From assembly GCF_044324875.1 (NCBI RefSeq), contig NZ_CP172185.1: a stretch of 64,000 nt of DNA; one strand, given 5' to 3'. The DNA is from Escherichia coli (lineage in GTDB: Bacteria > Pseudomonadota > Gammaproteobacteria > Enterobacterales > Enterobacteriaceae). Every line of letters begins with the position of its first letter. Within the stretch, counting starts at the first letter, position 1. Of the stretch, positions 1-58,360 are shown piece by piece. Both the position numbers and the translations under genes were made by a program. Under the pieces are notes generated by a model that saw only the letters and a program-made list of their open reading frames with translations, made no database searches and had not been told where the DNA came from.

Positions 1-358
1 CTAATGTATTAACAATAAAAGAGGTGAGATCCTGCATACGCGCGGCAACCTTTTCGGCACGTGATGCCCATTCAGGCTCATCCGCCAGATACGTTGGGTA
101 ACTTTTTACGGCATAGGTACAGGAGCCAGCCGGTGAAATAATGGGATCGTCGTTATCCTCCAGTGCGGCGATCAGATTTTTCATCCCTGGAATCGCTTCT
201 TTGATATAACCACTATTGATCGCAGGCTGACCGCAGCATCCCTGTTTCTCCGGGAAATTTACGCGACAGCCGAGTTTTTCCAGTAGCAGCACGGAGTCTC
301 GTGCCATTCTTGATTTCAGGGCGTCACCAATACAGGTGACAAAGAAATTGACATTCAC
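1..358 (-). CDS. ykgE: Cys-rich LutA-like oxidoreductase subunit YkgE, 5' portion only (GTG start at 358; gene runs off the window start)
   Basis: Minus-strand translation VNVNFFVTCIGDALKSRMARDSVLLLEKLGCRVNFPEKQGCCGQP... matches YkgE N-terminus; not in ORF track because it is truncated by the window edge. Confidence 0.8.
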   Translation of the reverse strand, partial: MNVNFFVTCIGDALKSRMARDSVLLLEKLGCRVNFPEKQGCCGQPAINSGYIKEAIPGMKNLIAALEDNDDPIISPAGSCTYAVKSYPTYLADEPEWASRAEKVAARMQDLTSFIVNTL

Positions 359-875
359 AACTAATACTCCATTACTTCATGCCCATTTATGCCCGATGGT
401 TCCCCCCTTCCGGGGGATCAATCATCAATAAATATGGCGTTCTTTTTTAATTGGCTAGCAACATACCACCCCTCATTTGTATGACAAATGATAATCTTTG
501 ATCCAAACTTCAAATGCAATAACTAATTTTATTTCTTTCGGCATCGCTCACATTTTATAGGGAAATCGACGATCATTTTTGGCATAAGAAATCCATTTAA
601 AAAGGCTACATCCCTTATACCTATTCAGTGCTACTTATTCAGGGGTTATTGAGATATACACTGATGGTGTACAAACAAAATCACCAACAATAATTACGTA
701 TCAAGTAATAATCGGCATTTTATTTAATTGAAGCAATTTAGTTTGTATCTTTTATTTAATTACTAAGCCAGACCACTTCAAAAAAATATATAAAAAACTT
801 GGAAATAGAAATAGTTGAAAGGCTCACAACTCCCGGAATGCGGATTATCTTTGCCCTGATTTCTGGCGGTTTTAT

Positions 876-1730
876 TCAGGGTGCAAGCTGTCTGACCCTT
901 TCCCGATATTCTCCCGGGGTACAACCAAACTCGCGAACAAACGCCTTGTGAAAAGATGATTCACTGGCATAGCCTACTGACTCAGCGATCACCACAACAG
1001 GGAGCGTTTCCCGGGAAAACATCTGGGCCGCTATTTGTAGACGCAACTTTGTTAATACAGCCAGCGGCGTGGTTCCGGAAACATCACGGAAAAGCTGGGC
1101 AAAACTTGCCCGGGACATGTGGGCGATGCTGGCCAGCGATTCGACGGTCCAGGCGTGTCCTGGCATTTCCAGCATTTGCTGTATTACCGCACCAAGACGT
1201 GGATGCAGAAGCAAACTGAGAATGTTTTTCTCTGTATTAACCTGTGCAATCCACTCACGCACCGCGAGGATAAAGAATGTAGCGCAGATCTGGCTACACA
1301 GTGCATCCACTCCCGGCATTGCCGATCTGGATTCCTGTTGTAAAAACGGGATCGCCTCCCTCAGCCAGTTATATTCCACGCTATGGTTCACTGGTGCTAC
1401 AAACAGCGTTTCCGGCAAAGACGTTAAAAAATAACGCGCCGAATGTTGCAGCCGAAGAGTGCCACAGACAATATAGGTCGATTCATTATCGACATGACTC
1501 AGGCGATGAGCTGAATTTTGTGGTAGCAGGACCACATTTCCCGGGCGTAATGTAAAAATCTCTCCCGTCGGCATTTCCAGCTTCGCCGCTCCTTGCGTTA
1601 ACGCATGCCAACGAATAACCGACAATTCCCCGGCACCATGTGGAAGTTGCCAGTCACTTCCTAACACGCAATTCTTATCGATCGTTCCTTGTGGAGCGTT
1701 AAGCATCAACAAACGGCTAAGAGCATCCAT
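876..1730 (-). CDS. rclR: AraC-family redox-sensing regulator RclR (284 aa from MDALSRLL; the track ORF extends 17 codons further upstream)
   Basis: ORF 876..1781; C-terminal AraC HTH; divergent from rclA. Confidence 0.85.
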   Translation of the reverse strand: MDALSRLLMLNAPQGTIDKNCVLGSDWQLPHGAGELSVIRWHALTQGAAKLEMPTGEIFTLRPGNVVLLPQNSAHRLSHVDNESTYIVCGTLRLQHSARYFLTSLPETLFVAPVNHSVEYNWLREAIPFLQQESRSAMPGVDALCSQICATFFILAVREWIAQVNTEKNILSLLLHPRLGAVIQQMLEMPGHAWTVESLASIAHMSRASFAQLFRDVSGTTPLAVLTKLRLQIAAQMFSRETLPVVVIAESVGYASESSFHKAFVREFGCTPGEYRERVRQLAP

Positions 1731-1956
1731 ATCAGACTCCTGAGTGGTTTTTTGATTACAAACACCAACAATCTTAGTCAATAATTAATCTAATACCATC
1801 AAATAGTTAATCATGATTTTTGTTTTGTGATTCTGATTAAGAAAAAGAAAATACCAGACGATAAGACAAAATATCAAGCGTTGTGAAGAAATGTTATTTG
1901 CTCTTTTGCGTCTATAGTCATGATGTCAAATGAACGCGTTTCGACAGGAAATCATC

Positions 1957-3282
1957 ATGAATAAATATCAGGCAGTTATTATTGGTTTTGGCAAGGCTGG
2001 AAAAACATTAGCCGTCACGCTGGCAAAAGCAGGTTGGCGTGTGGCTCTCATCGAACAATCAAATGCAATGTATGGCGGGACCTGTATTAATATCGGCTGC
2101 ATCCCAACCAAAACATTGGTTCATGACGCACAGCAGCACACAGATTTTGTCCGTGCCATACAGCGTAAAAATGAAGTGGTTAATTTTTTACGTAATAAGA
2201 ATTTTCATAATCTTGCGGATATGCCCAATATCGACGTGATCGACGGCCAGGCGGAGTTTATCAATAATCATAGCCTGCGTGTTCATCGGCCTGAGGGAAA
2301 TCTGGAAATTCATGGCGAGAAAATTTTTATTAATACCGGTGCACAAACCGTGGTTCCGCCAATTCCTGGAATTACCACCACGCCAGGAGTATATGACAGC
2401 ACCGGATTACTTAATCTAAAAGAATTGCCTGGGCATTTAGGTATTTTGGGCGGCGGATATATTGGCGTTGAGTTCGCCTCTATGTTCGCTAATTTTGGCA
2501 GCAAGGTAACCATTTTAGAAGCAGCTTCGCTGTTTTTGCCTCGGGAAGATCGGGATATTGCTGATAATATCGCGACGATTTTACGCGATCAGGGCGTCGA
2601 TATAATCCTCAATGCCCATGTGGAGCGAATCAGTCACCATGAAAATCAAGTGCAAGTGCATAGCGAGCACGCCCAACTGGCGGTGGATGCACTGTTAATA
2701 GCTTCCGGTCGTCAACCGGCTACCGCTTCGTTACATCCAGAAAATGCCGGTATCGCAGTAAACGAGCGCGGGGCAATTGTCGTTGACAAGCTATTACATA
2801 CCACCGCAGACAATATTTGGGCGATGGGAGATGTTACCGGCGGGCTGCAATTTACTTATATTTCACTGGATGATTACCGCATTGTGCGTGATGAGTTGCT
2901 GGGAGAAGGCAGACGTAGTACTGATGATCGGAAAAATGTGCCTTATTCCGTATTCATGACACCGCCACTGTCCCGGGTTGGTATGACAGAAGAACAGGCC
3001 AGAGAGAGTGGTGCTGATATTCAGGTGGTGACATTGCCTGTAGCTGCAATTCCGCGTGCCAGAGTGATGAACGATACCCGTGGGGTATTAAAAGCGATTG
3101 TTGATAATAAAACCCAACGTATATTAGGGGCATCACTGCTGTGTGTTGACTCCCACGAGATGATCAATATAGTGAAAATGGTGATGGATGCCGGGCTGCC
3201 TTATAGCATATTACGCGATCAGATATTTACTCATCCGTCGATGAGCGAATCACTCAATGATCTATTTTCATTAGTCAAATAA
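1957..3282 (+). CDS. rclA: Pyridine nucleotide-disulfide oxidoreductase RclA (441 aa from MNKYQAVIIGFGKAG)
   Basis: FAD-binding GxGxxG at N-terminus, CxxxxC redox motif (GTCINIGCIPTK), dimerisation domain. Confidence 0.9.
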   Translation: MNKYQAVIIGFGKAGKTLAVTLAKAGWRVALIEQSNAMYGGTCINIGCIPTKTLVHDAQQHTDFVRAIQRKNEVVNFLRNKNFHNLADMPNIDVIDGQAEFINNHSLRVHRPEGNLEIHGEKIFINTGAQTVVPPIPGITTTPGVYDSTGLLNLKELPGHLGILGGGYIGVEFASMFANFGSKVTILEAASLFLPREDRDIADNIATILRDQGVDIILNAHVERISHHENQVQVHSEHAQLAVDALLIASGRQPATASLHPENAGIAVNERGAIVVDKLLHTTADNIWAMGDVTGGLQFTYISLDDYRIVRDELLGEGRRSTDDRKNVPYSVFMTPPLSRVGMTEEQARESGADIQVVTLPVAAIPRARVMNDTRGVLKAIVDNKTQRILGASLLCVDSHEMINIVKMVMDAGLPYSILRDQIFTHPSMSESLNDLFSLVK

Positions 3283-3390
3283 ACTCAAAATCAGACGCCA
3301 GAACAAATATTCTGGCGTCTCAGAGAAAAGAATCTTATTAATTCCCTGTTACTTTATAACTTCTTAATCACTTCATTGATGGTATTTTAT

Positions 3391-3627
3391 ATGTTTAAAA
3401 AATCTGTTTTATTTGCAACACTATTATCTGGCGTTATGGCATTTTCCACCAATGCAGATGATAAAATAATTCTGAAACATATCAGCGTCTCGTCAGTATC
3501 AGCATCACCGACAGTTCTTGAGGATGCCATTGCTGATATAGCCAGAAAATATAATGCTTCATCCTGGAAAGTCACATCGATGCGAATTGATAATAATTCA
3601 ACCGCAACAGCAGTATTGTATAAATAA
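3391..3627 (+). CDS. rclB: Small periplasmic DUF1471-type protein RclB (78 aa, signal peptide)
   Basis: ORF 3376..3627, start trimmed to MFKKSVLFATLLSGVMAFS; follows rclA. Confidence 0.8.
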   Translation: MFKKSVLFATLLSGVMAFSTNADDKIILKHISVSSVSASPTVLEDAIADIARKYNASSWKVTSMRIDNNSTATAVLYK

Positions 3628-3638
3628 GGATGTTCACA

Positions 3639-4232
3639 ATGGAAAAATACCTGCACCTGTTAAGTCGGGGAGATAAAATTGGCCTGACATTGATTCGTCT
3701 GAGTATTGCGATTGTTTTTATGTGGATTGGGTTATTAAAGTTTGTCCCTTACGAGGCAGACAGCATTACACCATTCGTCGCAAACAGTCCACTAATGTCG
3801 TTCTTTTATGAACACCCGGAAGACTATAAACAGTATCTGACTCACGAAGGCGAATACAAACCAGAAGCAAGGGCATGGCAAACGGCCAATAATACCTATG
3901 GTTTTTCCAACGGTCTTGGCGTCGTGGAGGTGATTATTGCTCTGCTGGTTTTGGCTAATCCTGTCAATCGCTGGTTAGGTTTATTGGGAGGGCTGATGGC
4001 ATTTACCACACCGTTGGTAACACTCTCATTTTTAATCACCACCCCGGAGGCATGGGTACCCGCATTGGGTGACGCTCATCATGGTTTCCCTTATTTATCC
4101 GGTGCTGGTCGCCTGGTATTGAAAGATACTCTGATGCTGGCAGGTGCTGTCATGATAATGGCAGATTCGGCGCGGGAAATTCTTAAACAACGCAGTAATG
4201 AATCCAGTTCAACGTTAAAAACTGAATATTGA
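3639..4232 (+). CDS. rclC: Inner-membrane protein RclC (197 aa)
   Basis: ORF 3630..4232, start trimmed to MEKYLHLL; hydrophobic segments. Confidence 0.8.
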   Translation: MEKYLHLLSRGDKIGLTLIRLSIAIVFMWIGLLKFVPYEADSITPFVANSPLMSFFYEHPEDYKQYLTHEGEYKPEARAWQTANNTYGFSNGLGVVEVIIALLVLANPVNRWLGLLGGLMAFTTPLVTLSFLITTPEAWVPALGDAHHGFPYLSGAGRLVLKDTLMLAGAVMIMADSAREILKQRSNESSSTLKTEY

Positions 4233-37056: not shown

Positions 37057-37148
37057 GAAAATCACCTAAATCGTTTAAAAGAGCGCCCAACCCATAGTGG
37101 GCGCTTATCGCCTTGTGTAACTTATTCAGCAACGCGCGCCTCGCCGGA

Positions 37149-38342
37149 CTAAAGCGCACCGGCCTTCTGGCGTGCGGTAACAAAGGTCAGTACGCCAGCG
37201 CAAAGGAGCAGCACGCTACTCATAGCAAACGTGCTCTGCCAGCCAAGGCGGTCAAACACAATGCCTCCTGCCGTTGATCCAAGGGCGATGGCGAGCCGAA
37301 TCACCGCGACCATGAGCCCGCCTCCGGCTTCGGCGTTGTCAGGCAACGTACGCGCAATCCATGTCCACCATCCGGTTGGCGCGGCGGTGGCCAGCATGCC
37401 CCAGAGTCCTAACAGCAGCGAGACCGTCCAGACGTGATGCCCGGTAAGCATCAGACCGATGGCAATGACGGCCATCAGTCCGGGTATGGCCATCAGCGTG
37501 GGGTAGAATTTTCTGTTGAGAAATGCCGAAACAACCAGCGTGCCAATAAAACCGGCCACGCCGATAATCAGCAAAATCGACGACAAGCCTAAGGAATTAA
37601 CCCGTGTCACCGACTCCAGAAACGGGCGCACATAGGTGAATAGCGCAAACTGCCCCATGAAAAACAGGCCACAAGCTATCATGCCGACCACAACCATGCG
37701 GCGGCTAAATAAGCGGAATACCGCGCCACATGAAGTGTGGCTTTTATTCGCATCCATGCTTGGCAGGCTGATGCACTGCCAGATAAAGGCGACAACCGCG
37801 ATGGGCACCAGGCACAAGAAAGCGCCTCGCCATCCGACCGTAGCCCCCAGATAGCTTCCCAGCGGTGCGGCCACGACCGTCGCCAGCGCATTACCGGCGT
37901 TGAAAATTGCCAGCGCACGCGTGACCTGATGCTGCGGCACCAGACGAATCGCCGTTGCCGCTGACATCGACCAGAATCCGCCAATAGCCACACCAATCAT
38001 CGCACGACCGACCATATACATCAGATAACTGGAAGCCAGCGCAATAATAAGCCCCGATACGGCCATCAGAACCGTCATCCCCAGCAGCAGGAACTTACGA
38101 TTCATCTTTCCAGCTAGCGTTGAAAGCGTCAGGCTGGTCAGAACCGCCAGCGCGCCGGAGATAGCAATCCCCTGCCCTGCCAGCCCCTCCGTCACGCCTA
38201 AATCGCGGGTAATCGGCGTGAGCAGGCTGACGGGCATGAATTCAGAAGCAATCAGCACAAACACGCACAGGGTCATGGCAAAAATACCGCCCCAGTATGC
38301 GCGCTGATGATGAGGTGATAGTGTTTGGCTTAGTGTCGACAT
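37149..38342 (-). CDS. MFS-family transporter (397 aa)
   Basis: About 12 hydrophobic segments. Confidence 0.75.
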   Translation of the reverse strand: MSTLSQTLSPHHQRAYWGGIFAMTLCVFVLIASEFMPVSLLTPITRDLGVTEGLAGQGIAISGALAVLTSLTLSTLAGKMNRKFLLLGMTVLMAVSGLIIALASSYLMYMVGRAMIGVAIGGFWSMSAATAIRLVPQHQVTRALAIFNAGNALATVVAAPLGSYLGATVGWRGAFLCLVPIAVVAFIWQCISLPSMDANKSHTSCGAVFRLFSRRMVVVGMIACGLFFMGQFALFTYVRPFLESVTRVNSLGLSSILLIIGVAGFIGTLVVSAFLNRKFYPTLMAIPGLMAVIAIGLMLTGHHVWTVSLLLGLWGMLATAAPTGWWTWIARTLPDNAEAGGGLMVAVIRLAIALGSTAGGIVFDRLGWQSTFAMSSVLLLCAGVLTFVTARQKAGAL

Positions 38343-38417
38343 AGTGAAATTTCACAAAGATCAGGATAAAAGCCACCAGCCTATGGCCGGTGGCTTTGCA
38401 TCAATTCAGGAGAGGTT

Positions 38418-39575
38418 TTATTTCAGTTTGGTCTGGAAAAATTGTTCGAACTTCGCGAAAGGTATTTTTCCGGCCACGTTATCGTACAGGTCCACGTGAT
38501 TTGCCCCTGGTACCACCACCAGCTCTTTGTCTTTACTGCCAACCGCCTTGTAAGCATCTTCAGCAAAATAGCGTGAATGCGCTTTCTCACCGGTCACAAT
38601 CAGCGTCGGGATGGTGATTTCACTGGCGTAGCTCAACAGCGGCATATTCATAAATGACAGCGGCATCGTTGCCGTCCACGCCCCGGTAGAGTTAACGGAA
38701 CGTTCGTGGAAGCCGCGCGGCATGCGATAGTAGTCAAAGAACTCTTTCAGTACCGGATGAGGATTTGCCGGCAGCGTTTCTGGCAGAATGCGCTCGCCCG
38801 CACTGACCTTGCCGTTGCTGTCGACATTAATATCATGACCACCGTGAGCGAACGTTCCGCTCTGCGCATCCTTCCAGCGCTGTTCATTCAGATATTGCAG
38901 AACAGCACGACGGTCGGCGGTAGAATAACGGTCTTTGCCATCCCCCACACCATGCCCCATCGCCCGGCTCATGTCATACATCACGCTGGTAGCTACCGCT
39001 TTAACGCGGGTATCCATCGCCACGTCGTTCAGCGCCATGCCGCCCCAGCCACAAATACCGAGCAGCCCGATACGGTTGCGATCTACCTCTTTTTGCAGCC
39101 CTAAGAAATCCACCGCCGCGCTGAAATCTTCAGTGTTGATATCCGGTGAGGCGACGTTTCGCGGATAGCCGCCGCTTTCCCCGGTGTAAGAAGGATCGAA
39201 CGCCAGGGTAACAAACCCTCGTTCCGCCAGCGTCTGCGCATACAGGCCGCTGGATTGCTCTTTCACCGCGCCAAATGGCCCACTGACCGCAATCGCCGCC
39301 AGCTTGCGATCGCCACGGTCTTTAGGCAGGTAAAGATCGCCCACTAAGGTGATGCCATATCGGTTCGGGAACGAGACTTTACGGTGATCGACTTTCTGGC
39401 TCTCGGCGAACGTTTTATCCCATTTATCTGTCATGGACACAGGGGCATTAGGATTGGTTGAATCAGCATAACTCATTGTCGTGACTCCACTTAATGATGC
39501 GAAAAGCAGCATGGTCGGCATCGCGGTTTTTAGCGTGCGGGTGAAGGCTTTCATAAAAATCCCCATAAAAAACAA
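38418..39575 (-). CDS. Secreted alpha/beta-hydrolase fold protein (385 aa; start uncertain)
   Basis: Signal peptide; GICGWGG nucleophile elbow; paralog of 18025..18945. Confidence 0.65.
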   Translation of the reverse strand: MFFMGIFMKAFTRTLKTAMPTMLLFASLSGVTTMSYADSTNPNAPVSMTDKWDKTFAESQKVDHRKVSFPNRYGITLVGDLYLPKDRGDRKLAAIAVSGPFGAVKEQSSGLYAQTLAERGFVTLAFDPSYTGESGGYPRNVASPDINTEDFSAAVDFLGLQKEVDRNRIGLLGICGWGGMALNDVAMDTRVKAVATSVMYDMSRAMGHGVGDGKDRYSTADRRAVLQYLNEQRWKDAQSGTFAHGGHDINVDSNGKVSAGERILPETLPANPHPVLKEFFDYYRMPRGFHERSVNSTGAWTATMPLSFMNMPLLSYASEITIPTLIVTGEKAHSRYFAEDAYKAVGSKDKELVVVPGANHVDLYDNVAGKIPFAKFEQFFQTKLK

Positions 39576-39740
39576 CAGAGAGATACAGGTTTCCGACGGA
39601 CAACGCTGCGGTGCTTTACTTTGATGGGGTCATTATAGTGAGCAGAATTAGTGCTGATTAGTGGGCGATTAATGCTAAGATTAATACCATATTGTTATAA
39701 ATTAATGCGGAGATTGCCGGCATGAAGGGGGGATGTTTCA

Positions 39741-40625
39741 ATGGCGAAAAGGGAGAACTACAACGAGCTGTACCTGTTTATGCAGGTGGTGCGGGAAGGC
39801 AGCTTTACCGCAGCGGCTCAGCGGCTGGGTCTTGCTCAGTCAGGAGTCAGCCGTTCTGTTCGCGAGCTTGAAGAAAGGCTGGGCGTCCAGCTGCTAGTGC
39901 GCACCACGCGTAAACTGTCGCTGACACAAGCAGGCGAGCAGCTCTACCAGAAGACGGCATCTGGATTTGAAATGTTAGATCTTGGGCTTGCCACGCTGGC
40001 GCACTATCGAGAGACGCCCTCCGGCACGGTGCGTATCAATGCCAGCCAGCACGCGATTGATAAATGCCTGCTGCCAAAGCTGGCGGTATTTAAACAGAGA
40101 TATCCTGATATCCGGCTTGAACTGATAAATGAGAGCCGGTTCGTCGATATCATCGAGGAAAGATTCGATGCAGGTGTCCGCCTGGGGCCTGAAGTCGGCC
40201 AGGGTATGGTCGCGGTACGCATCACGCCCGATATGGAGATGGCAATTGTGGGGACTCCGGAACATTTTCGTCGCTATGGTTTTCCGCAAACCCCGGCGGA
40301 TTTAAAGGCGCATCCCTGTATCGCCTATCAGTTTGCCGACGGCAGCGTATACCAGTGGGAACTCAATCAGGATGATAAAAAAATCACTCATCGCCCTGAA
40401 GGGCAATGGGCCCTATCCGACAGCTATATGGAAGCAGAAGCCGCCCGGCTGGGCCTCGGATTGGCCTATGTTCCTGTTGAACTGGTCGCGGATGATTTAG
40501 AACACGGTAAGCTTATCAGGGTGTTGCAGCGTTACAGCCTGCGAATGGAGGGATTGTTTCTCTATTACCCTCATCGCAACGTCTCCCCCGCCCTGCGGAT
40601 GGTCATTGATACATTGAAAATCTGA
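39741..40625 (+). CDS. LysR-family transcriptional regulator
   Basis: LysR HTH (FTAAAQRLGLAQSGVSRSVRELEERL); close paralog of the IS-split LysR gene. Confidence 0.8.
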   Translation: MAKRENYNELYLFMQVVREGSFTAAAQRLGLAQSGVSRSVRELEERLGVQLLVRTTRKLSLTQAGEQLYQKTASGFEMLDLGLATLAHYRETPSGTVRINASQHAIDKCLLPKLAVFKQRYPDIRLELINESRFVDIIEERFDAGVRLGPEVGQGMVAVRITPDMEMAIVGTPEHFRRYGFPQTPADLKAHPCIAYQFADGSVYQWELNQDDKKITHRPEGQWALSDSYMEAEAARLGLGLAYVPVELVADDLEHGKLIRVLQRYSLRMEGLFLYYPHRNVSPALRMVIDTLKI

Positions 40626-40839
40626 ACGTTAACAACGACCGACTCTTCACTGTGCAAAATTGTGTCAGGTAGTCCCTCTGCGTTCAATTCCAGGGTCTGC
40701 TTTGAGCGAGAAAGAGGGGACTATCCAGCAATGGAGATCACCCAAAAGAAAAAACCACCTGACTCCCTCGACAACCTTCATCCGGGCATTTAGCCTCAAT
40801 CAACATGTTTATATCTGTCAGGTTACTTCATGATGAAAA

Positions 40840-40989
40840 CTGATCATCATCGTTGTTTTTGTTGCAATAGTAGAATACGCGTATTTATTCCTCCATCTCT
40901 ATTAATAACGGCAATAAACTGTTCACTTCACTGATATTTAAAATATGTATCCTTTTCAAGCTGTTCAGCGGCGTAAGAAAAAGTATTAA
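40840..40989 (+). pseudogene. Decayed remnant of a ykgR-like gene fused to the 3' end of an rpmJ2-like gene
   Basis: 40840..40905 encodes LIIIVVFVAIVEYAYLFLHLY* with no start codon; 40945..40989 encodes MYPFQAVQRRKKKY* (compare RpmJ2 ...[11 protein letters not shown]); flanks align with 20768..20880 and 21558..21710. Confidence 0.5.
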
Positions 40990-41306
40990 TTATGAATTCG
41001 ACGATTTAACCATTTCAGTCTGATTGGTAATCATCTATGATTAATGCTGGTCTATTGATTACGCCAGCATTAACCGCTTAGGGATGTATTCTTCCTGTCC
41101 ATATAGCCCTCGAAAAAGAGAGAAAATAAAACTGTGTCCAATATTAATTTACCACTTCAGACCGAAACATCGGTGGAATTAGCAGGACGACTGGTACAGA
41201 AGGATGGTATAGCGTCATTTGTCGGGCATTCCATTGCCATAATAATGACAATTTTGAAGCAATAGCCGTGCTTCTTGATCATGTCTTAAAAATTATACCA
41301 TGAGCC

Positions 41307-41537
41307 TTATGAGGCATCATTTTTACTGACTGGTGTTAACTTTGCTATCATATAAACTCTGTTCTTAAAAAACGCGCCCAGAATTTTATATGATTTTCCT
41401 TGTTTTGCTGCCTGTAAAGAAATTTCTTTTTCAGTGCTGTCGATGGTTGAACCGACGGCAGTAATCGTTTTGGCGACGCTACTGAAGGATATTAAAGACA
41501 GTGTAACCACAACAATTAAAGAATAGATAATATTCAT
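41307..41537 (-). CDS. DUF1471 (YhcN/BhsA-like) small periplasmic protein
   Basis: Signal peptide then ...ITAVGSTIDSTEKEISLQAAKQGKSYKIL...; AGGAG ribosome-binding site. Confidence 0.55.
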   Translation of the reverse strand: MNIIYSLIVVVTLSLISFSSVAKTITAVGSTIDSTEKEISLQAAKQGKSYKILGAFFKNRVYMIAKLTPVSKNDAS

Positions 41538-41752
41538 GCTAATTCTCCTGACAATTGAGAGGATGAGTTTAATATACAAAGGCATTAAATATGAGTCATG
41601 TTTACTCCCTGTGAAAATAACCTTACTGTAATTAAACCTTCATCTCCTTCGGGGTGAGCAATGCAAAATATAATGCATCTTGCTATGCAAAACAGTGGAT
41701 ATAAATTTTCCTCGCGACCTATTTAATAAAACGTGAATATAAAAGTTAGTCT

Positions 41753-42304
41753 TCAGTTTGCAGATGCAGTAGGTCTGATGGTAATTTCGGTTGTATCAAC
41801 GCTTTCGGGAGATTCAATAATATGCCTTACAGCACGGGCAATATCCGCAGGTTGAAGTGCAACAGAACGGTAGGCGTCCATTGACTTCATGGTTTCCACA
41901 TGGGTAATGGTTGAAGCCAGTTCACTTTCTACAACCCCAGGATTTACGCAGGTCACACGGATTTTCGAGCTTTCCTGCCGTAAGCCATCCGAAATAGCCC
42001 GTACTGCAAATTTTGATGCGCAATAGACTGCGCCTGTGGGCACAACAGAAAGGGCACCAATAGAACCAAGATTGATTATCTGACCGGAACCCTGTGCTTC
42101 CATCACCGGAAGTACAGCGCCAATTCCCCAAAGTACACCTTTGATATTCACGTCAATAGTGAGCTCCCATTCATCTTGTTTTCCTGCTGCAAGCGGTGAA
42201 AGCGGCATAACGCCCGCATTATTGATAAGAACATCAACTCGCCCCCAGCTATCCAGCGCTACTTGCACGAAATCTGCCATGGACTGTCGGTCTGTGACAT
42301 CCAA
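41753..42304 (-). pseudogene. 5'-truncated short-chain dehydrogenase/reductase gene
   Basis: Has NNAG and YxxxK (YCASKFA) motifs but no N-terminal TGxxxGxG Rossmann segment; 5' end abuts the integrase remnant. Confidence 0.55.
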
Positions 42305-42475
42305 CTTGCATTTTCAGAAATGGGAGGCTGGGAGTCTATCGAAATGGTTCGTCGATATGCTCACCTTGCACCTAATCACCTTACCGAACACGCACGGCAA
42401 ATAGACTCAGTCCTGAACCCATCGGTCCCAAATTTGTCCCAGTCAAAAAAAAAGGAAGGTACTAATTATGTGTAA
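42263..42475 (+). pseudogene. C-terminal remnant of a tyrosine integrase gene beside thrW
   Basis: ...[21 protein letters not shown]... (catalytic Tyr region); ends 15 bp from the tRNA 3' end. Confidence 0.65.
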
Positions 42476-42489
42476 CTTATTGATTTAAA

Positions 42490-42565
42490 TGGTGCCGATA
42501 ATAGGAGTCGAACCTACGACCTTCGCATTACGAATGCGCTGCTCTACCAACTGAGCTATATCGGC
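42490..42565 (-). tRNA. thrW: tRNA-Thr (anticodon CGU)
   Basis: 76-nt cloverleaf GCCGATATAGCTCAGTTGGTAGAGCAGCGCATTCGTAATGCGAAGGTCGTAGGTTCGACTCCTATTATCGGCACCA. Confidence 0.9.
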
Positions 42566-58029: not shown

Positions 58030-58360
58030 TTGGGGCGAATCCGGCATCGGTGCACAATTGCCGGATGCGGCGTGAACGCCTTATCCGGCCTACCGATCCG
58101 GCACAAGTTTGTAGGCATGATAAGACGCGTCAGCGTCGCATCAGGCATCTGCGCACAATTGCCGGATGCGGTGTGAACGCCTTATCCAGCCCACCGATCC
58201 GGCACAGGTTTGTAGGCATGATAAGACGCGCCAGCGTCGCATCAGGCACCGGTGCACAATTGCCGGATGCGGTGTGAACGCCTTATCCGGCCCACCGATC
58301 CGGCACAAGTTTGTAGGCATGATAAGACGCGCCTGCGTCGCATCAGGCATCCGCGCACAA
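58030..58360. repeat. Tandem REP/BIME array, about 3.3 copies of a 92-101 bp unit
   Basis: Repeated gcacaattgccggatgcgg(c/t)gtgaacgccttatccggcc...tgtaggcatgataagacgcg...cgtcgcatcaggca. Confidence 0.85.

Follow-up and report, generated by a model that had tools for sequence, protein, structure and literature searches.

The imperfect inverted repeat that follows a LysR-family regulator gene in the 64,000-nucleotide stretch of Escherichia coli DNA analysed here (the window) is, with a probability that we put at roughly 70%, a by-product of the joining of two horizontally acquired modules and not a selected structure. The site is an unremarkable, decayed relic of a junction and a degenerate representative of a known, little-studied family of palindromes that stand at the boundaries of mobile cargo, and it is not a structured RNA. 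The evidence comes from homology on the two sides of the junction, from E. coli alleles with and without an 18-bp deletion, from folding and pairing statistics, and from other copies of the palindrome in prophages and chromosomal islands. Compared loci are cited by L numbers.

Homology on the two sides of the junction

The local gene order is paoD, an MFS transporter gene and an alpha/beta hydrolase gene (both on the minus strand), the LysR gene (plus strand), a ykgR fragment (ykgR′), variable DNA, thrW (42493-42565, minus strand), proA and proB. The LysR coding sequence, taken from the list of open reading frames and the annotation, occupies 39741-40625 on the plus strand, and its product is WP_001119037.1 in relatives; the gene names of the module are those of the RefSeq annotation of identical E. 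coli loci. The MFS transporter, hydrolase and LysR genes make up a horizontally shared module with 93% identity to Citrobacter amalonaticus. Its limits, which correspond in two compared loci to L007 386-3972 and L004 625-4213, translate to window positions 37124-40712.

When species-representative genomes were scanned with the LysR protein, 78 loci were returned. The 3.6-kb block of the three genes recurs at 92-93% identity in Citrobacter amalonaticus, Klebsiella spallanzanii and Kluyvera, and BLAST and alignment showed that conservation across genera includes the 3′ flank of the LysR gene (40626-40712, plus strand), which holds the left arm of the repeat and the 5′ half of the boundary palindrome. 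The cross-genus homology ends at 40710-40713, between the two arms of the repeat. BLAST matches to L007, L008, L009, L072, L081 and L086 all stop at query position 84-88, and the same break is found in E. coli FDAARGOS_1373, whose downstream genes differ. All of these relatives keep an inner hairpin, GTCYGCT-N9/10-AGCRGAC, and the right arm of the repeat is absent from every one of them, from the other genera as well as from the E. coli with different downstream DNA.

Immediately to the right, a second cargo cassette, of the LysR2 type, begins: 40715-40849 (plus strand) holds its leader and first codons, with 89% identity to L102 5147-5280. The latter segment extends from just past a hairpin to the start of the LysR gene in a cassette of LysR and polyketide cyclase genes, located in the hokD-adjacent slot of a lambdoid prophage of strain Z1323HEC0477. 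The L102 hairpin is of the same type and in the long form described below, GTCCGCTTT-GTGCGA-AGAACGGAC, followed by TTATCTGTACAAGGGAACTATCC. The long-range repeat is absent from this prophage, where the left-hand DNA is different. Taken from both sides, these alignments show the arms of the repeat as parts of two different modules, joined at the hairpin. The same prophage also carries four tRNA genes (Gly, Thr, Lys and Ile) clustered beside its Q antiterminator gene (L102 1400-1709).

The cassette leader in the window is itself truncated and fused to a ykgR-derived fragment (40837-40953, plus strand), which is 91.5% identical to the genuine ykgR locus in ~3,280 genomes and is annotated in relatives as a pseudo-CDS at 40837-40905, "incomplete; missing N-terminus". 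The "ykgR" pseudogene (40830-40905) is a chimera in which the LysR2-type leader and its ATGAAAA start (as at L102 5265) are joined to the 3′ two-thirds of ykgR. The fusion point is a microhomology, AAA(A/C)TGAT, and as a result of the fusion the ykgR reading frame has no start and is shifted by one base. According to the earlier note, the repeat lay at the edge of the ykgR-like segment, a placement that has to be corrected: the edge is that of the LysR module, and ykgR homology begins ~115 nt further on. An origin of the repeat as part of a ykgR duplication was rejected because homology to genuine ykgR begins only at 40837.

The intergenic region between LysR and ykgR′ is present in ~908 of 5,426 complete E. 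coli genomes and bears no annotated feature in any of these carriers. There are no paralogous copies of 40626-40836 elsewhere in E. coli; all matches are to the same locus, the best among complete E. coli genomes reaching at most 98.6%. Three substitutions are private to the window (A at 40762, G at 40807 and G at 40832, where all compared alleles have G, T and T, respectively), and they fall within 70 nt. Two of the three make ATG triplets, and ATGATG at 40830 starts a 34-codon ORF in a frame other than that of ykgR.

Between ykgR′ and thrW, 41307-42475 contains a 92-aa minus-strand ORF (in EDL933 a small hypothetical protein), a truncated ORF of an SDR oxidoreductase (41753-42304, minus strand) and a C-terminal integrase fragment (42263-42475, plus strand) that adjoins the tRNA-Thr gene. 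These ORFs resemble what an island integrated at thrW would leave behind. In other strains (L001, L003 and L005) an AbiE toxin-antitoxin and a reverse transcriptase take the place of this content.

The boundary palindrome and its alleles

E. coli alleles of the junction occur in two forms. In the short form, found in this window and in 400 E. coli genomes, GAGAAAG is joined directly to AGGGGACTAT. The long form (472 E. coli genomes) reads GAGAAAG-AGCRGRCTTATCTGTACA-AGGGGACTAT, and its extra DNA provides the 3′ arm of a strong, local 11-bp hairpin consisting of GGGTCTGCTTT, the loop GAGCGAGAA and AGAGCAGGCTT. The long-form 3′ arm is either AGAGCAGGCTT or AGAGCGGTCTT, and both variants pair with the 5′ arm in an 11-bp stem. 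Because the long form also occurs at an independent prophage locus (L102 5107-5165), the short form is derived from it by deletion; the opposite polarity, with the short form ancestral, was rejected on the same ground. The ancestral long allele has the 11-bp hairpin followed by TTATCTGTACA-AGGGGACTATCC. In the allele alignments, the deletion junction falls at 40713-40715 of the window, with a placement made ambiguous by an AG repeat, and the 18 bp lost are AGCAGGCTTATCTGTACA in AST262-type alleles.

One further allele, from E. coli ETEC1738 (L085 1570-1580, about window position 40695), combines the 18-bp deletion with a 9-bp insertion, GTCTGTACA, just 5′ of the 5′ arm of the hairpin. This insert resembles the deleted ATCTGTACA, which suggests a more complex rearrangement at the palindrome, perhaps a template switch.

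What survives of the boundary palindrome in the window lies at 40693-40712 (plus strand), with the 5′ arm GGGTCTGCTTT at 40693-40703 and the loop GAGCGAGAA, of the TGAGCGA type, at 40704-40712. The GTCTGCT core of the 5′ arm (40695-40701) is intact and the original 3′ arm is deleted. A substitute 3′ arm, AGGGGAC (40715-40721), offers 6 of 7 pairs with one G.G mismatch. The covariance model of the palindrome family matches 40691-40725 with 17.6 bits (E = 0.019 in the window), compared with 22-38 bits for intact copies. The full GTCYGCT/AGCRGAC stem is found in the long-form alleles of the locus, at 11 bp within the family range of 7-12 bp. Two features tie the window copy itself to the family: (i) the conserved loop, TTGAGCGAG at 40702-40710, is identical to that of the P2-EC46 right repeat and of lambdoid copies, and (ii) homology ends at the palindrome, that of other genera at 40712, with the prophage leader starting at 40715, or at the hairpin in long-form alleles. 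An exhaustive model scan of the window found no partner palindrome of the other loop type (the next best score was 10.9 bits), and the downstream cassette is truncated. Nor is there a family palindrome at the left end of the E. coli-type module. An ordinary, terminator-like hairpin is found there instead, AGCGCCCA-N8-TGGGCGCT followed by CTTTTAAACG (37082-37105, minus strand), which lies 44 nt beyond the MFS transporter stop codon and coincides with the left limit (~37124) of the block common to Citrobacter.

Geometry, pairing and origin of the inverted repeat

The left arm of the repeat, TAGTCCCTCT (40670-40679, plus strand), and the right arm, AGAGGGGACTA or AGAG(G)GGACTA (40713-40723, plus strand), form a stem of 10 Watson-Crick pairs that is interrupted by a single bulged G and encloses a loop of 33 nt; the right arm was delimited from the sequence, the covariance-model alignment and the folds. 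GG at 40668-40669 could extend the stem by G-C and G-U pairing with TC at 40724-40725. The repeat lies on the sense strand, 43-100 nt past the LysR stop codon, and was missed by an ungapped repeat finder because of the bulge. Complementarity is thus present as the earlier note had it, with different details: the string gtagtccctctgcg is at 40669-40682 and not at 40670-40683, the trailing gcg and leading gagaa of the quoted arms do not pair, and the loop exceeds the 25 nt or so that had been given. The lack of a U-run, also claimed there, was confirmed.

Measured against the rest of the window, the repeat is no more than chance would supply and is not distinctive. With a comparable repeat defined as 10 Watson-Crick base pairs, at most one bulge and a loop of 3-60 nt, the 64-kb window contains 83, and 42.6 +/- 6.2 are expected from first-order Markov simulations. 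The 76-nt plus-strand RNA has a folding energy of -25.8 kcal/mol versus -20.5 +/- 2.7 for shuffled sequences (z = -1.96), with 7 of 200 shuffles equally good; in a 145-nt context z is -0.14, and the minus strand folds no better than the plus strand. Rfam 15 covariance models gave no match at 40626-40836 even at E = 10, and none at the sites of intact palindrome copies in seven other loci. A scan for promoter and terminator consensus sequences returned nothing at the repeat and no promoter-like site in 40626-40836. The combination of short loop, GC-rich stem and U-run that defines an intrinsic terminator was not found at this site in a scan of 40400-41700; the repeat itself has its 33-nt loop and the tail CCAGCAATGG.

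Pairing was counted over nine distinct E. coli alleles. Eight pairs of the outer stem are invariant, one shows a one-sided change (C>U, giving U.G), a mid-stem C-G pair becomes A.G in five of the nine alleles, and there are no compensatory changes. The base at C40675 is A in EDL933, NCTC122, L7_E1373 and PapRG-06-5, and the left-arm CC is AT in strain 100248; the partner is unchanged in each case. That 8 of the 10 pairs never vary neither supports nor excludes constraint. The inner hairpin, over the same alleles, has two pairs changed on both sides (C-G/U-A; U.G/U-A/G.U). RNAfold nests the 11-bp hairpin of the AST262 long form within the outer stem, and the outer stem is missing from the minimum-energy fold of EDL933. 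Compensatory pairing in homologues, the generic mark of a conserved RNA, was not found for the outer stem. The folding and covariation check that the earlier note had proposed therefore goes against a structured RNA, one of its two suggestions: folding is marginal, Rfam has no counterpart, pairing changes are uncompensated, and other genera lack the right arm. Its other suggestion, a relic recombination site, is borne out in part, since a decayed boundary palindrome does mark the module junction, but the relic is the inner palindrome and not the long-range repeat.

All E. coli alleles with the junction contain the outer-stem core (GGTAGTC/GACTATC plus CCC/GGG), which is therefore older than the deletion. 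Creation of the repeat by the 18-bp deletion was rejected because the core stem is already there in long-form alleles; the effect of the deletion was to shorten the loop from ~52 to 33 nt and to add two to three pairs, AG(A)/(T)CT.

In sum, the MFS-hydrolase-LysR module ends at ~40712 in a small palindromic boundary element (stem GTCYGCT/AGCRGAC, loop TGAGCGA), and the leader of the second cargo cassette (40715-40849), known also from a lambdoid prophage, starts immediately to its right. The 3′ arm of the hairpin was lost in the window lineage to the 18-bp deletion, which has the short repeat AAG/AG at its flanks and probably arose there by replication slippage. The leftover AGAGGGGACTA has two possible partners, the orphaned 5′ arm, with which pairing is imperfect, and TAGTCCCTCT, 34 nt upstream, with which it is more stable. 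The left arm itself resembles the family 5′ arm AGTCCGCTC minus one G (AGTCC-CTC in the window), probably by common descent, and the family 3′ arm GAGCGGACT appears to correspond to GAGGGGACT in the window. The one-G difference between the family 5′ arm and the left arm would account for the bulge of one G. This resemblance extends over ~9 nt and could be of chance origin, and the somewhat greater stability of the 76-nt RNA than of its shuffles (z = -1.96) counts somewhat against a by-product. The repeat would have no function of its own; at most, if transcribed, it might take over from the lost hairpin as a 3′-terminal stem-loop for the LysR mRNA.

There are three other possibilities. The stem-loop might be a functional 3′ end of the LysR transcript, either a terminator without a U-tract or a stabiliser against exonucleases that replaces the deleted hairpin. 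Its position on the sense strand 43-100 nt past the LysR stop codon and its -25.8 kcal/mol would suit such a role, as would the long form, in which the 11-bp inner hairpin and the following UUAUCUGU are weakly terminator-like, and a family copy (L086 3585-3608) that lies 11 nt past an ORF and is followed by TTTGTTTG. We nevertheless consider this unlikely: the window allele has neither a U-run nor a terminator call, T-rich tails are missing from most family copies, the outer stem is broken without compensation in five of nine alleles, and conserved loops (TGAGCGA, TGGCAC) would not be expected of plain terminators.

Complementarity by pure chance, unrelated to the boundary palindrome, would agree with the repeat census, in which chance is expected to account for about half of the 83 repeats, and with the z of -0.14 in the 145-nt context. 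It seems quite improbable given that the right arm serves in place of the lost 3′ arm in a recognisable family member and that the left arm is the family 5′ arm bar a 1-nt deletion; with both arms resembling family arms, their complementarity becomes understandable by common descent. A repeat like the left arm ~25 nt 5′ of other family copies was found only as a weak AGTCC match in lambdoid copies. An independent small RNA or a cis-regulatory RNA, such as a 5′ element for the downstream ykgR-like ORF, is scarcely credible. Although the site is intergenic and ~900 genomes have no annotation there, nothing in Rfam matches it, 40626-40836 has no promoter-like site, the downstream ORF is a frameshifted pseudogene fragment, and the structure is traversed by indel polymorphism and shows no covariation. 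The by-product of a module junction thus remains our preferred reading of the repeat.

Palindromes at cargo boundaries and their comparison with known systems

The covariance model was seeded with eight non-E. coli copies. In the seed alignment 94.6% of cells pair, versus 36-46% with the partners slid, and one pair shows C-G, U.G and U-A; covariation in the seed is modest. The model matched sites of three kinds, those after LysR orthologues in many genera, those at the other module end in Lelliottia, Morganella and Enterobacter, and unrelated intergenic sites. Homology of the block between genera stops at the hairpins: for Lelliottia and Morganella, identity is 95.7% over 264-3941, and the hairpins lie at 271-304 and 3922-3947 (L048). 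One post-LysR copy, in Enterobacter sp. JUb54 (L040 3963-4026), has a 32-nt loop insertion that forms a 10-bp hairpin of its own (GCTGTGAGTT ... AACTCACAGC); loops of family palindromes can therefore take insertions.

TGAGCGA-type copies occur in 636 of 5,426 E. coli genomes, one to four per genome, and are never annotated. The E. coli copies that we inspected lie in lambdoid prophages beside cargo (HAD and NUDIX; MFS, GGCT and LysR; SIR2, ITPase and adenosine deaminase). BLAST against phage records gave matches in P2-like phages, in lambdoid phages and in GenBank AJ512680, AJ512683 and AJ512685, and in these three records, which concern the P2 Z region, the site bears the annotation "left/right inverted repeat". 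At 21 of 21 nt, the LysR-flank hairpin of E. coli FDAARGOS_1373 matches the "right inverted repeat" of P2-EC46, a feature annotated in AJ512680 and AJ512683.

Model matches bracket cargo in L087 (2501-2524 and 3966-3991), L093 (1384-1407 and ~2850-2873), L094 (1709-1732 and 3509-3532), L095 (1895-1918 and 3313-3336) and L092, and in P2-EC46 three hairpins delimit two ORFs. Bracketing pairs are also found in L048 (see above), L052 (4363 and 4994) and L020 (6240 and 6770). In all eight of these L loci, among which are lambdoid prophages, P2-like phages and chromosomal modules, the polarity is fixed, with a TGAGCGA-loop hairpin at one end of the cargo and a TGGCAC-loop hairpin in the same orientation at the other. 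Where cassettes abut, the two loop types are 18 nt apart. The NUDIX-HAD cargo of a lambdoid prophage and that of a P2-like phage are 99.3% identical exactly from hairpin to hairpin. Among empty prophage slots, no clean example with a single hybrid hairpin was found, the best candidates being the 3′ end of another cargo (L103) and a deletion derivative (L104).

These comparisons raise the possibility, which we hold tentatively and with some doubt, that cassettes are exchanged by a mechanism that uses the family palindromes (stem GTCYGCT/AGCRGAC, two loop types, fixed polarity) as crossover sites and moves cargo, anti-phage and metabolic modules included, between P2-like phages, hokD-adjacent lambdoid slots and Enterobacterales chromosomal islands. 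The NUDIX-HAD cargo common to two phage types is indirect evidence for recombination at the palindromes. The window site would then be a dead, deletion-damaged junction of two cassettes. The inverted repeats of the P2 Z/fun region were reportedly noted by Nilsson, Karlsson and Haggard-Ljungquist in 2004 (Mol Biol Evol 21:1, pmid 12949155). Full-text literature searches found no later description of the palindromes. Three points may be undescribed so far: their presence in lambdoid prophages, their occurrence around the MFS-hydrolase-LysR module in several genera, and the polarity of the two loop types. In a 2022 study of hotspots for defence genes in P2/P4 (PMC9122126), the repeats do not appear, and the recombination pathway behind such exchange of cargo is described as unknown.

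The repeat itself is of little import, a lineage-specific feature of a decaying junction with no sign of selection. The palindrome family is compact, easily recognised and coincides exactly with the edges of cargo modules, both in prophages of two unrelated types and in chromosomal islands. If the palindromes are crossover points, they would allow the cargo and defence cassettes of Enterobacterales to be delimited from sequence, and they would offer a concrete substrate with which to find the enzyme responsible. The family merits a systematic survey.

Several known systems resemble the family in part. Like the Rho-independent terminators that flank phage morons, its members are GC-rich hairpins just 3′ of cargo genes, but the U-tract is missing at the window site and in most copies, and stem and loop sequences are conserved across unrelated cargos. 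With REP/BIME elements they share the form of short, dispersed intergenic palindromes, two types of which are sometimes adjacent (L008 4787 and 4829). The family sequence, however, is unrelated to REPs of the GCCGGATGCGGCG type, its copy number in E. coli is very low (the one to four per genome given above), and its members are tied to the boundaries of accessory cargo. The window does contain REP/BIME-type palindromes elsewhere, three in tandem at ~58041-58300 (TGCCGGATGCG ... CGATCCGGCA), ~101 nt apart, which appeared in the inverted-repeat census. Integron attC sites and their gene cassettes are similar in placing small imperfect palindromes between promoter-poor cargo units, in forming cassette arrays and in the fixed polarity of the ends; the family elements differ in being much shorter (24-34 nt) and in having conserved loops. 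Reading of 40660-40730 found no attC core sites (RYYYAAC/GTTRRRY) flanking either palindrome, and no integrase is annotated in any locus examined for family palindromes. Identity with attC and with REP was rejected on sequence grounds.

The closest counterpart is the set of repeats in the Z/fun region of P2-like phages. The window copy differs from them in its location, which is chromosomal, near thrW and paoD and not in a P2 prophage, and in its state, having lost its 3′ arm to the 18-bp deletion, scoring only 17.6 bits and having no partner of the other loop type in the window. The likeness lies in sequence and in position: the phage repeats have this palindrome at their cargo-proximal ends (left, GTCCGCT-ATGTGCCAAG-AGCGGAC; right, GTCTGCT-TTGAGCGAGG-AGCG..), and in both settings it stands exactly where the homology of the cargo ends.
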